From the NCBI GenBank assembly GCA_964248365.1, contig CAXTYC010000022.1, positions 17,642 through 81,641 of the forward strand: 64,000 bases of DNA, written 5' to 3'. The first letter of the stretch is position 1. The number at the start of each line of letters is the position of its first letter. The notes beneath the pieces were generated by a model, which was given only the letters and a program-made list of their open reading frames with translations, was not told the origin of the DNA and ran no database searches. Below, piece by piece: positions 59,838 through 62,747 of the stretch. Source of the DNA: an uncultured Chroococcidiopsis sp. (GTDB lineage: Bacteria; Cyanobacteriota; Cyanobacteriia; Cyanobacteriales; Chroococcidiopsidaceae). A program made the translations under genes and the position numbers.

Positions 59838-62747
59838 ATGAGCAAACAAGTAGAAGCAAGCTACCCATCCCTTCAATCTGAAAACAATCATGGCATCTTA
59901 GAAAAAGATGCCGGAGCATTAATTCGTTTTACCACTGTTGCCGAACAAATCGCCGCCACAACTAAACGTCTGGAAAAAGCGGCACTTCTTGGCAGCTATT
60001 TCACCTCATTATCCGATCATGACCTAGTTCATGCTGCACGGTTTTTTGCAGGCTACATATTTCCCCTGAGAGATCAGCGTACCATCAATATTGGCGGGGC
60101 TGCCCTATTGAGTGCGATCGCTGCTGTGAGTGGAGTTGAAAAATCAATTTTGCAAGAAAAGTTAGTCAAACAAGGCGATCCTGGTGACGTAGCCGCCGCC
60201 GTCTTGACAGATAACTCGATTCATGGTAATACACTTACACTCACAGACTTATCAAACCGACTCGAACAACTAGCAACCACAACGGGAACGAAACGCAAAA
60301 CCGATCTTGCGATCGAGTTGTTGAAAATAGCAACTCCCCTAGAGGCAAAATACATTGTCAAGCTGCTAGCAGGTGATCTGCGAATTGGACTAAAAGAAGG
60401 TGCTGTAGAGGATGCGATCGCTCGTCTAGACAAAACCGATATTAGTCGTGTGCAATGGGTCAATATGCTAACAGGCGATATTGGCGAAACTGCATTACTT
60501 GCGCGTCAGGGACGACTTGACGGGGCAAAAATGCGGCTATTCCACCCAATTAAATTTATGTTAGCAAGTCCGGCGGCTGATTTAACCGAAGTAGCTGTAC
60601 AAATGCCTTCTGGATTTGCAGTTGAAGACAAGTATGATGGCATTCGCGCCCAAGTTCATATTGCACCAGACGCAGATTCTAACACGATTATACATGGCAC
60701 TGTTCACAACCGTAGGCGCGTCGCTCTTTTCTCCCGCACACTAGACGAAATTACACTCAGCTTTCCCGATCTCGTTGCACCGCTTGCAGATATCCTACCA
60801 TTGTCTGCTGATCGTGAAGAAAACGGCTTAATTCTAGACGGGGAAATTGTACCAGTAATGGGAGAACAAATTCTTCCCTTTCAAGAACTACAAAAGCGAC
60901 TTGGACGCAAGAAAGTTTCAGAAGAGTTGCAAGCTGCTGTACCTGTCGCCTTCATTGCCTATGATGTGTTGTACGCCCAAAATCGTATATTGATTAATGA
61001 GACATTTTCTCAACGGCGAACTGTTTTAGAATCATTGCAACTGAACTCGCCAAAAGTACGCACTTGCGCAAGCCTTGTAATGGCTGATATTTCCGGCTTA
61101 GATGCTGAATTTGTAGCTGCTAGAGCGCGAGGAAATGAAGGTTTGATGGTGAAAGATCTTAATTCTACCTACAAACCAGGTCGAAGAGGGCGTGAGTGGC
61201 TGAAAATTAAACGCGCACTGGCTACTTTAGATGTAGTTGTTACAGCCGCTGAAGTTGGTAGTGGTAAAAGGCATCGTTTTCTTTCTGATTATACCTTTGC
61301 TGTACGCCAGAGCGAAACCGATCCAACTCTCTTAAATCTGGGTAAAGCTTATTCAGGTTTGACTGATGCCGAAGTGACTGATTTAAGTAATTGGTTTCGC
61401 AACCATACAATACAAGAATTAGCTCATGGTAAAGTGTGTATAGTAGAACCGCGCATCGTCTTGGAAGTAACTTTTGATCGGGTGCAAGTGAGCGATCGCC
61501 ACAACAGCGGTTATGCCTTACGCTTTCCTCGTATTGTGCGGATACGGCACGATAAGCCAGCCGAAGAGATTGATACGTTGGAAACAGTGCGCCGTTTGGC
61601 ACAATCTACTCAAGGTGTTGCACAGGTTGATGATAGTTTCTCGCATAGACGACCGAAGGGAGGCTTCTCGAAGAGTAGACGCAAAGGCGCAAAGGAGGTA
61701 AGGGAAGATTATACGACACCAAGTTTAGAAGTCGCGCACAGTGCTTTTAAAGCTTTTGTTGCAGGTATTGCACCAGATCAACAGGTGGTGATCTTACATG
61801 ATTCGGATGCTGATGGGGTGACGGCTGGGGTGGTTTTGCAGCTAGCTTTGTCGAGATCTGGATATAGTAAAGTAACACGAATTGTACCGGATCGGGAACG
61901 CAATGCTTGGACACCTGCTAATCAGGAGAAAGTCAAAGCAGCTTCCCCCGATTATTTATTTGTTCTCGATTTGGGTAGTCAGTCAGAATCAATTCTTAGC
62001 GGCGTTCGTACCTGTTTTATCGATCATCACCGCCCGTCGGGAGTGCCAGCAGGTGATACCCTAATTAGTGCCTATACCTGGAATCCGATTCCCAATACAT
62101 CACTGATAGTTTGGGAATTGTGTAAGGATTTGACAGATGTATCCGATTTAGATTGGATTGCGGCGATTGGTACGATGAGCGACTTAGGTGAAAAAGCACC
62201 CTTTGAAATGCTGGCGATCGCTAAAAATAAATATACTGCCAAATACTTAAAAGAAGCAACAGCCCTAATCAATGCGGCGCGACGGGCTTGTGATTATAAC
62301 CCAGAACTTGCAGCCAAAGCTTTACTAACCCACACTTCACCAAAAGATCTTGTTAACTCAAATACAGACTCAGTAAAACAACTGCGTCAGGCTAGAGAAG
62401 AGGTAAAAGCCGCCCTGGAAGAAGCAAGGAAAGCTGCACCTGTCTTTGCTAACAATGTTGCTCTAGTGCGGATTAATTCACCTTGTCAAATTCATCCTCT
62501 CATAGCGCAAAGCTGGCGTACACGCTTACCTAAATATATCGTCATCGCCGCGAATGAGGGATATATCCCAGGTAGAGTTAACTTTAGCGTCAGAACGAAT
62601 TCAGGAATAAACGTTTTGGACTTCTTACGCGATGTGAATTTATCAGAAGGCGAAGGTAACTATGGTAACGGACATGATAGCGCCTCTGGAGGAAGCTTAC
62701 CTGTAAAAAGATGGCAAGAATTGCTAATCAAGCTAGGATTTAATTAG
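59838..62747 (+). CDS. ATP-dependent DNA ligase fused to a DHH/DHHA1 phosphoesterase
   Basis: Ligase motifs EDKYDG, LDGE, YDVL, EGLMVK, WLKIK and RFPR, then DSDADG, LDLG, IDHH, GTMSD and GNGHDSASGG, all in one frame. Confidence 0.92.
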   Translation: MSKQVEASYPSLQSENNHGILEKDAGALIRFTTVAEQIAATTKRLEKAALLGSYFTSLSDHDLVHAARFFAGYIFPLRDQRTINIGGAALLSAIAAVSGVEKSILQEKLVKQGDPGDVAAAVLTDNSIHGNTLTLTDLSNRLEQLATTTGTKRKTDLAIELLKIATPLEAKYIVKLLAGDLRIGLKEGAVEDAIARLDKTDISRVQWVNMLTGDIGETALLARQGRLDGAKMRLFHPIKFMLASPAADLTEVAVQMPSGFAVEDKYDGIRAQVHIAPDADSNTIIHGTVHNRRRVALFSRTLDEITLSFPDLVAPLADILPLSADREENGLILDGEIVPVMGEQILPFQELQKRLGRKKVSEELQAAVPVAFIAYDVLYAQNRILINETFSQRRTVLESLQLNSPKVRTCASLVMADISGLDAEFVAARARGNEGLMVKDLNSTYKPGRRGREWLKIKRALATLDVVVTAAEVGSGKRHRFLSDYTFAVRQSETDPTLLNLGKAYSGLTDAEVTDLSNWFRNHTIQELAHGKVCIVEPRIVLEVTFDRVQVSDRHNSGYALRFPRIVRIRHDKPAEEIDTLETVRRLAQSTQGVAQVDDSFSHRRPKGGFSKSRRKGAKEVREDYTTPSLEVAHSAFKAFVAGIAPDQQVVILHDSDADGVTAGVVLQLALSRSGYSKVTRIVPDRERNAWTPANQEKVKAASPDYLFVLDLGSQSESILSGVRTCFIDHHRPSGVPAGDTLISAYTWNPIPNTSLIVWELCKDLTDVSDLDWIAAIGTMSDLGEKAPFEMLAIAKNKYTAKYLKEATALINAARRACDYNPELAAKALLTHTSPKDLVNSNTDSVKQLRQAREEVKAALEEARKAAPVFANNVALVRINSPCQIHPLIAQSWRTRLPKYIVIAANEGYIPGRVNFSVRTNSGINVLDFLRDVNLSEGEGNYGNGHDSASGGSLPVKRWQELLIKLGFN

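Follow-up and report, generated by a model that had tools for sequence, protein, structure and literature searches.

The 64,000-nucleotide stretch of DNA analysed here (the window), from an uncultured Chroococcidiopsis sp., raises the question of whether a gene joining a DNA ligase to a DHH phosphoesterase encodes a real two-part protein and, if so, what such a protein might do. The open reading frame (59838..62747, +) encodes 969 amino acids without internal stops and, according to Pfam and motif reading, carries an ATP-dependent ligase and a DHH-DHHA1 domain, both complete, on the same chain, as the earlier note on this DNA had claimed. On the basis of the reading frame, Pfam and homologous fused clusters, it is described here as a fusion of an ATP-dependent DNA ligase, a linker and a RecJ-core-like DHH-DHHA1 module. 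The DHH family is matched at aa 650-763 (31.3 bits, cut-off 28.1) and DHHA1 more weakly at aa 901-963 (20.3 bits, under its own cut-off). That no methionine precedes the DHH part also holds, none being present from aa 437 to 780; since in-frame ATG, GTG and TTG are moreover all absent from aa 588-649, the DHH half is without a start of its own, and a separate DHH protein made from an internal start is ruled out.

The domain architecture DNA_ligase_A_M plus DHH/DHHA1, a search for which the same note had suggested, recurs: among the 120 matches listed, DHH and all three ligase families stand together in at least 46 further clusters (P0004-P0049; clustered at 90% identity, matched at 69-80%). 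A contig of a related strain (run X8) covers 60536-62744 and carries linker indels that sum to -27 nt, hence in frame, and those of a second contig (run X1) sum to -33 nt, again in frame. Both halves of the fusion are under purifying selection, dN/dS being about 0.06-0.14 in the ligase and DHH domains alike; for the short linker it is roughly 0.5-2. An assembly slip or a frameshift artefact is excluded by the fused clusters, the in-frame linker indels and the dN/dS values, and the fusion is confirmed as real, conserved and more than a product of chance. The gene context of close homologs, counted over 80 genome loci, agrees: the genes are fused at 18/80 and separate, with the ligase upstream, at 23/80, so that the relatives do not all have two separate genes. 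Within the window no repair gene neighbours the fusion, the adjacent genes being assigned by Pfam to pentapeptide, GAF and KGK families. No sigma-70-like promoter was found for the gene on the + strand, no match to a LexA-box pattern lies at it, and no RNA data are listed as carrying it. With the PADLOC models of known anti-phage defence proteins zero families were matched by three proteins at E 0.001, and a defence system was rejected.

The ligase half is composed of a DNA-binding N-terminal domain (PF04675, DNA_ligase_A_N, E 3e-33; aa 30-195; 59925..60422, +), an adenylation domain (PF01068, DNA_ligase_A_M; aa 241-458; 60558..61211, +) and an OB domain (PF04679, DNA_ligase_A_C; aa 480-573; 61275..61556, +) with the RFPRIVRIRHDK motif at its end. 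Motif reading places motif I, EDKYDG with K265, at 60624-60641 (+); K265 is invariant in 42/42 aligned fusions, and the catalytic residues of the ligase show no variation across the same 42/42. The motifs EDKYDG, ILDGE, FIAYDVL, EGLMVK, WLKIK and RFPRIVR are all intact. On these features the ligase half is assigned to the dnl1 superfamily, in the three-domain LigB/archaeal type, with the KxDG lysine and motifs III-VI present, and its putative function is ATP-dependent nick sealing. It passes TIGR00574 (258.8 bits, cut-off 217.8); it is not a member of TIGR04120 LigB (337.2 bits, cut-off 400), nor of LigD, as no Pol or PE Pfam match appears at E 0.01 and all LigD models score far under their cut-offs. 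The Lhr/phosphodiesterase/MBL exonuclease operon is absent around the fusion within the window, and an MBL-exonuclease query has no match in the fusion-bearing genome. Since LigA and two canonical RecJ genes are still encoded in this genome, the fusion enzyme is to be regarded as an add-on.

The second half (aa 630-966; 61725..62735, +) was delimited by Pfam, a structure model (pLDDT 94.7) and fold and profile searches as a DHH-DHHA1 nuclease core with a RecJ-core-like fold and no OB fold. It belongs to the DHH phosphoesterase superfamily, showing the DxD(A)DG, D, DHH and D motifs together with the DHH-DHHA1 fold; HDSDADG, VLDLG, IDHH, MSDLG and GH are intact, and both active sites of the fusion are, by their motifs, intact as well. 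In the alignments, D655, D657 and D659 of HDSDADG, DHH motif I (61797..61817, +), correspond to drRecJ D79, D81 and D83; the IDHH catalytic motif (62019..62030, +), also recognised by motif reading, contains D729, H730 and H731; and H946 of GNGHDSASGG, the DHHA1 GH motif (62664..62693, +), corresponds to drRecJ H397. The drRecJ residues R109, R280, S371 and R373, which grip the 5'-phosphate (PMC4846377), correspond in the sequence alignment to R686 (61893..61895, +), R816 of the NAARR motif (62271..62285, +; invariant in 65/65 homologs) and S917 and R919 of the NFSVR strand (62580..62594, +), R280 being placed indirectly via T. thermophilus RecJ. All three basic pocket positions are kept in 58/65 diverse homologs. 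Judged from these alignments, the DHH half carries the metal ligands of RecJ and its terminal 5'-phosphate pocket, and may be a 5'-to-3' exonuclease; in RecJ this pocket allows the 5'-dRP to be stripped ahead of ligation in long-patch BER (PMC7515722).

The best fold matches of the DHH model are of RecJ type (RecJ2, Z 29.9; S. aureus RecJ, Z 28.8; T. thermophilus RecJ, Z 28.2), whereas NrnA/Pde2/DhhP-type structures reach Z 20.7 at most; likewise, a profile of the DHH family ranks RecJ at the top (E 1.6e-17) and NrnA-type entries at the bottom. NrnA/Pde2 nanoRNases share the size class and the DHH-DHHA1 architecture of the DHH half but differ in fold (NrnA-type matches, Z 15-21), in its DNA-repair context and in their RxRxR basic patch within DHHA1 (PMC5593865), which is absent from the NFSVR strand and present in 0/65 homologs, ruling out membership of NrnA (the Bacillus-type nanoRNase/pAp phosphatase). 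Since the RecJ pocket is kept and the RxRxR patch is missing, a RecJ-like rather than NrnA-like domain, and 5'-end trimming, fit better; of the "RecJ/NrnA-like" label given earlier, only the first part survives. Bacterial RecJ (D. radiodurans 5F54/5F55/6LRD; T. thermophilus 1IR6/2ZXO) has in common with the DHH half the fold (Z 27-29), the metal ligands, NAAxR, the 5'-phosphate pocket, an aromatic residue at the Y114 position and GH; the DHH half differs in its size (about 340 aa), in the lack of an OB fold and of a C-terminal domain, in an identity of only 18-20% and in being fused to a ligase. In the models the protein stops at the last DHHA1 helix, with no OB fold after it, stand-alone homologs measure about 350-370 aa, and the bacterial RecJ model TIGR00644 is not passed (37.9 bits, cut-off 396.9). 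Against 5'-end trimming, RecJ reduced to its core is far weaker, the OB fold being needed for efficient binding of single-stranded DNA (PMC4846377).

The DHH family is recurrently linked to repair genes. Among the close homologs, uvdE adjoins at 7/80 genome loci, HhH-GPD genes also occur, and one locus (L023) has the order uvdE-nei-ligase-(two genes)-DHH. For the distant homologs, one narrower clade was taken and 80 metagenome loci were read; uvsE lies just downstream on the same strand in 58/80, with a 4-nt overlap in 34/39 full-length pairs, and the pairing recurs in 3/5 annotated plasmids. Within those 80 loci no ligase or Nei was found, so that the fused and the uvsE-coupled clades may differ in role. 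A complex prediction for a UvsE/DHH pair of this clade (alignments A7/A6) scored 0.00, returned no answer and is given no weight in either direction. The apparent DHH-UvdE fusions P0392, without the last DHH helix, and P0296, seemingly garbled by a frameshift, are one sequence each and are given little weight, since a single indel in a pair overlapping by 4 nt would yield them. The fusion-bearing genome itself (G000) encodes UvdE, but this is uninformative, because UvdE is common in close relatives without the fusion (25/27 genomes of the same family), and 35/61 relatives overall have it; UvdE also occurs in 41/50 DHH-bearing genomes, a figure with no matched control.

The best explanation, which we rate at roughly even chances, is that the fusion combines an accessory ATP-dependent ligase with a 5'-to-3' end-trimming nuclease for excision repair; such a role is favoured because relatives of the RecJ-like domain adjoin DNA damage-cutting enzymes in many bacteria. 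The cycle, all four steps of which we infer, would start with a lesion-specific incision (by UvdE, an AP endonuclease or a glycosylase/lyase such as Nei), leaving a break with the lesion or a sugar-phosphate remnant on its 5' side. A separate polymerase would then elongate from the 3'-OH, pushing off a short 5' flap; the DHH domain, with its Arg/Arg/Ser/Arg pocket holding the terminal 5'-phosphate, would use two metal ions to cut off a single nucleotide or a few, so that a clean 5'-phosphate is left; and the tethered ligase would close the nick. UVDE incises 5' to the damage, so that the lesion stays on the 5'-phosphate side (PMC6264785), and is able to clean 3'-blocks itself (PMC8307549).

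Cyanobacterial fusions form a single clade in the tree (trees were a quick mixture tree or LG+G4), and unfused adjacent ligase-DHH pairs, frequently with stop/start overlap or a spacing of a few bases, are still present in three other phyla; the fusion likely arose by the merger of two such overlapping operon neighbours. It might be neutral, loss of a stop codon having merged two overlapping co-translated repair genes, with the tether ensuring co-expression only and any chemistry being compatible with it. Besides the close spacing of the unfused pairs, this agrees with one member of the fused clade (L016) that has been split again by an IS-like gene, and with the linker (aa 589-628; 61602..61721, +), which is unconserved and predicted to be disordered (model, alignment, dN/dS), varies from 12 to 76 aa across 42 fusions, evolves near-neutrally and tolerates repeat insertions. 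The linker is flexible; in the full-length AlphaFold model (pTM 0.47) no fixed domain packing is predicted, and this model, in which the ligase OB domain is poor, can be read reliably for the low-confidence linker only and not for domain contacts. Neutrality nevertheless appears rather doubtful, since the fusion has been kept across several cyanobacterial families at saturated or near-saturated synonymous divergence, and since one further ligase-DHH fusion is of independent origin, giving at least two origins (AU p 3.4e-5 in the DHH tree; p 0.036 in the ligase tree).

As for the chemistry, the main rival of 5'-end trimming is that the DHH domain is a DNA 3'-phosphatase/3'-phosphoesterase, like LigD PE or PNKP, turning a Nei-made 3'-phosphate into a 3'-OH so that the gap could then be filled and ligated. 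Nei leaves a 3'-phosphate and a clean 5'-phosphate, and a Nei-like gene, whose best model is endonuclease VIII, lies directly upstream of the ligase at 14/80 genome loci and, among 61 relatives, occurs in exactly the same three genomes as the fusion. In the genome studied here it sits (C28:70077-69076) with uvdE (C28:55263-54277) on another contig than the fusion. The partner adjoining the fused clade is Nei, not UvdE, which speaks against the trimming reading. Archaeal MtPAPP (8a8k), which is of similar size and likewise of DHH-DHHA1 architecture and removes the 3'-phosphate of pAp, ranks first in Foldseek and matches the DHH model as well as RecJ does (Z 29.0), so that the fold leaves the chemistry unfixed. 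Even so, a 3'-phosphatase seems unlikely: the Nei-like gene is found in only 2/11 further fusion-bearing genomes searched (9/18 when the 7 with an adjacent Nei are counted), the RecJ-type pocket would suit pAp and not a long chain 5' of the scissile bond, the NrnA RxRxR patch for binding on the 3' side is missing, and UvsE, the partner in the distant clade, gives a clean 3'-OH. P0393, a cluster combining Nei and ligase with the beginning of DHH, was set aside as an apparent deletion or chimera.

A still smaller probability is given to the DHH domain being a short-oligonucleotide scavenger that degrades damaged fragments, pNpN or pAp released by repair rather than acting on the break itself. 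Its NrnA-type size and its lack of an OB fold fit this, DHH-DHHA1 enzymes of this size often using very short substrates (PMC5593865), but its fold is nearer to RecJ than to NrnA, and the two independent ligase fusions and the PIP-box-like C-terminal tails of eukaryotic homologs point to chromosomal DNA. Very improbable is an aprataxin-like removal of 5'-AMP from aborted intermediates of its own ligase: the tether to an ATP-dependent ligase and the ability of DHH enzymes to hydrolyse phosphoanhydride and phosphodiester bonds would allow it, yet in many homologs the neighbour is not a ligase but UvsE, and the pocket belongs to the terminal-monophosphate type. The general idea of an end-cleaning and sealing repair enzyme, put forward in the earlier note, is supported by the Nei-like, HhH-GPD and UvdE neighbours, and the 3'-phosphate and 5'-AMP substrates it had named are, judging from the RecJ 5'-phosphate pocket and the missing RxRxR patch, less favoured.

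Fusions of a ligase with an end-processing module are known in kind, and the DHH partner appears to be new; in the open literature neither a ligase-DHH fusion nor a description of the DHH subfamily was found. LigD, an NHEJ ligase joined to polymerase and phosphoesterase domains, likewise combines an ATP-dependent ligase with an end-healing module, but it lacks the fusion's N-terminal DNA-binding domain, and the fusion in turn shows no Pol/PE domain. According to PMC10140301, the RMMBL nuclease-LigB fusions (Opitutus terrae; Antarctic Dry Valley DV-1-1-Nuc-Lig) and the LigB/Lhr/phosphodiesterase/MBL operon also couple a three-domain LigB-type ligase to a putative end-processing nuclease, which in the fusions is an N-terminal metallo-beta-lactamase instead of a C-terminal DHH domain. 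With regard to UVDE/UvsE alternative excision repair, to which members of the DHH family are linked by translational coupling to uvsE in many bacteria, reviews give FEN1/EXO1-type downstream enzymes and no DHH nuclease (PMC6264785).

Returning to 5'-end trimming and sealing, the fusion serves as a Rosetta stone: it ties a RecJ-like DHH family to nick repair and, together with the uvsE coupling, offers a purifiable candidate for the enzyme removing the lesion after the UVDE cut. Members of the DHH subfamily occur in bacteria, fungi, algae and amoebae; tentatively, and at less than even chances, the subfamily may be a dedicated 5'-lesion-removing nuclease of incision-type (UvsE/AP-endonuclease) repair, joined in bacteria to uvsE, or to a ligase and Nei, and docked to PCNA in fungi, algae and amoebae via a C-terminal PIP box. 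If so, the cyanobacterial fusion would be a one-chain "trim-and-seal" enzyme for both enzymatic end-processing steps of such repair. Because it is rare in cyanobacteria (2/401 sampled genomes) and isolates of soil and desert type are among its named carriers, it may serve as an accessory module for repair under UV or desiccation stress.

The linker also contains a dispersed genomic repeat of about 56 bp (61642..61697), translated in frame, which had been overlooked at first reading. No name for it was found in the literature. Contig C24 has an exact copy of 41 bp, the 15-bp core is present 39 times across the genome, and the repeat has brought an SD-like AAGGAGG into the linker.

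The ligase and the DHH-DHHA1 domain (the DHH half) lie in a single open frame of 969 codons (59838-62747, + strand), as the earlier note had read it, and all the catalytic motifs of a complete ligase and of a DHH domain are present. According to Pfam, a three-domain ATP-dependent ligase (aa 30-573) is followed by a DHH domain (aa 650-763) and, with a weak match, by DHHA1 (aa 901-963). The DHH part has indeed no start of its own, no in-frame ATG, GTG or TTG occurring at aa 588-649. Against family models, the ligase half scores above the dnl1 superfamily cut-off and reaches no equivalog cut-off; among solved structures, it is closest to full three-domain ligases (E about 1e-82). 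Each half occurs in one copy in the whole genome of the same source (99.97% complete), in which the fusion gene is the only match to an ATP-dependent ligase and which additionally encodes LigA and two canonical RecJ genes. The neighbouring genes in the window (pentapeptide, GAF, KGK and others) indicate a cyanobacterium, and no repair gene is found among them. In the same genome, the adenylation domain of LigA, the housekeeping NAD-dependent ligase, contains about 40 inserted aa, in frame, which consist of dispersed heptamer-type repeats (contig C4, 111180-111320, outside the window).

The ligase-DHH fusion is real, conserved and under selection. Among the 120 matches listed out of 8,000 scored candidates, 46 other 90%-identity protein clusters (P0004-P0049; 69-80% identity) share DHH and all three ligase families, so that the architecture, whose search in other proteins the earlier note had proposed, does recur; named carriers are Microcoleus, Trichocoleus, Symplocastrum, Coleofasciculus, Nostoc, Calothrix and Scytonema, and a further fused cluster in the same list, P0061, stands at 48% identity. 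When the DHH-half matches longer than 606 aa are considered (n=55), 54 contain a ligase domain and one UvdE. Alignment of 42 fusions showed no variation at the ligase lysine or at six of the seven DHH metal-site positions checked, and a linker ranging from 12 to 76 aa. The comparison with five fused orthologs gave a dN/dS of about 0.06-0.14 for both domains, where dS was measurable, and of about 0.5-2 for the linker, over few aligned codons. Contigs of related strains also cross the linker, whose length differs there by -27 nt (run X8) and -33 nt (run X1), both in frame; in the full-length structure model (pTM 0.47) the linker is of low confidence. In the window copy, a dispersed repeat occupies about 56 bp of the linker in frame (61642-61697), corresponding to about 19 extra residues relative to the closest ortholog; another copy is located on contig C24 of the genome (34391-34431), and the repeat carries AAGGAGG, an SD-like sequence that no start codon follows. 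One orthologous fusion (locus L008, 7090-7170; the same gene as in L003/L006) is frameshifted within the ligase adenylation domain, at a site resembling a short tandem/palindromic repeat insertion, which may point to a pseudogene or to a fault in the assembly. In a single relative (L003, 36-1472), an RtcB-like gene, recognized by eye from its motifs, is convergent to the fusion gene; no recurrence was seen.

The fusion gene is rare: a full-length match was found in 3 of 61 relatives, the source genome included, and an even sampling of the phylum (401 genomes) gave the DHH half in 2. In the best 80 of 107 DHH loci of the genome scan, DHH is fused to a ligase part in 18, three of which (L008, L014, L083) are broken or partial; L007 and L008 coincide with two of the full matches among the 61 relatives and are not independent of them. 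A separate ligase lies upstream of DHH in 23 of these 80 loci, directly adjacent in 19, in Armatimonadota, Abditibacteriota, Acidobacteriota and other cyanobacteria, many of the pairs having a stop/start overlap. The cyanobacterial fusions form one clade on the unrooted trees of both ligase (100/100) and DHH (100/100), and the two unfused members of the DHH fusion clade are split by an IS-like gene (L016) or cut by a contig edge (L032). Since all the surrounding lineages are unfused, adjacency probably came first and fusion second. A single fusion origin common to this clade and P0061, known from one 3-kb contig, was rejected on the DHH tree (AU p 3.4e-5) and marginally on the ligase tree (AU p 0.036). 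Transposase-like genes separate ligase from DHH in L016 (773-2077), a split member of the fused clade, and in L040 (6627-7955).

The model of the DHH domain is confident (pLDDT 94.7), and its top structural match is archaeal RecJ2 (Z 29.9, rmsd 2.8, 312 aligned), followed by the pAp phosphatase MtPAPP (Z 29.0, rmsd 3.0, 300 aligned), bacterial RecJ (Z 27-29) and NrnA/Pde2-type entries (Z 15-21); a 65-sequence family profile ranked RecJ first. The RecJ of D. radiodurans (drRecJ) grips the terminal 5'-phosphate through R109, R280, S371 and R373 and is fully active only with its OB fold (PMC4846377). Sequence alignment places R686, R816, S917 and R919 of the fusion protein at these positions, with the RecJ of T. 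thermophilus as the bridge for R280. R816 is found in 65/65 homologs, all three basic pocket sites are retained in 58/65, and the RxRxR patch, an NrnA motif (PMC5593865), occurs in 0/65. Unlike RecJ, the DHH half has no OB fold, and with 38 versus 397 bits on the RecJ family model it is not a member of that family. Because it has the fold and pocket residues of RecJ type, and neither RxRxR nor OB fold, the DHH half is like a minimal RecJ core in its predicted working, yet outside the RecJ family. A RecJ-like function should not be over-read, because MtPAPP, with the same fold, is a 3'-phosphatase (PMC10322725).

In the best 80 of 107 genome loci, uvdE adjoins the DHH gene in 7, and an Fpg/Nei gene, whose best model is endonuclease VIII with a score below cut-off, directly precedes the ligase in 14; the order in L023 is uvdE-nei-ligase-(two genes)-DHH, and in L039 and L040 an HhH-GPD glycosylase gene precedes nei. 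In the source genome, the Nei-like gene (69076-70077) is no longer in front of the ligase, as it is in relatives, but on another contig (C28, outside the window), about 14 kb from uvdE (54277-55263), and no remnant of it was seen upstream of the fusion gene in the window. Among the 61 relatives, a Nei-like gene is present in exactly the three fusion-bearing genomes and UvdE in 35. For 50 of the 80 loci, mainly Nei-adjacent loci and short contigs being left out, the source genomes were searched; the ligase was retrieved in 41 of them (in one case at just 36% identity), UvdE likewise in 41 and a Nei-like gene in 18, which include only 2 of the 11 fusion carriers searched. Two unpublished genomes (G474 and G476; loci L052 and L055) are included in these tallies, in the 80-locus counts and in one tree; none of the claims depends on these two only. 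In a distant clade of DHH relatives (about 40% identity), the partner changes to uvsE. Three of five plasmid matches are annotated DHH-uvsE pairs with a 4-nt overlap. Among the best 80 of 369 metagenome loci, which include near-relatives and are not independent events, uvsE is located downstream on the same strand in 58, and in 54 of the 68 where the downstream sequence extends for 300 nt or more; a match to ligase or Nei was found in none of the 80. The overlap is 4 nt in 34 of 39 full-length pairs. In L115, L139, L141, L142 and L143, uvsE lies about 610-710 nt downstream, leaving space for one intervening gene.

It is known that UVDE incises 5' to the damage, giving a 3'-OH and a 5'-phosphate (PMC6264785), and that it further cleaves AP sites and cleans 3'-blocks (PMC8307549); in long-patch BER, drRecJ takes 5'-dRP off flaps ahead of ligation (PMC7515722). 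After the UVDE cut a damaged 5' end would remain, suited to a RecJ-type pocket; following polymerase fill-in or strand displacement, the DHH domain might trim the 5' side (5'-to-3'), which the tethered ligase would then seal. On account of this fit between damaged end and pocket, we favour, with roughly even confidence, a DHH half acting as a 5'-to-3' trimming nuclease that readies the 5' side for the tethered ligase, every catalytic step of which we infer. Independently of the chemistry, the tether may be neutral, a reading to which we give a fairly low probability. The main rival to 5' trimming, a 3'-phosphatase serving Nei, would agree with the nei-ligase-DHH gene order and with the MtPAPP precedent; it is weakened by the uvsE pairing and by the fact that half of the fusion carriers have lost Nei, and we consider it unlikely. 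Scavenging of short fragments by the DHH half is somewhat more doubtful still, and deadenylation is very improbable.

The closest described architecture is a fusion of an RMMBL nuclease with LigB, in which the nuclease is N-terminal (PMC10140301); the main text of that paper contains no occurrence of RecJ or phosphoesterase, nor was DHH found in it, and the main text of a DHH-superfamily survey mentions neither ligase, fungi nor cyanobacteria (PMC3307487). In the open literature searched, no description of a ligase-DHH fusion or of a DHH-UvsE pair was found. Since one database label gives ligase and nuclease together ('ATP-dependent DNA ligase/single-stranded DNA-specific DHH superfamily exonuclease'), the architecture is annotated automatically, yet apparently unstudied. 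The fusion is a new addition to those joining a ligase with end processing and points to an uncharacterised family of RecJ-like repair nucleases.

Eukaryotic DHH homologs comprise Ascomycota clusters and, by record name, a blastoclad-type fungus, a green alga and an amoeba. A pattern scan of 149 representative matches disclosed PIP-box-like tails in 12, which fall among 20 rows flagged by pattern or as eukaryote-like. Many members of this uncharacterised eukaryotic family, which includes P0309, P0326, P0337, P0351, P0372 and others, end in PIP-box-like motifs.
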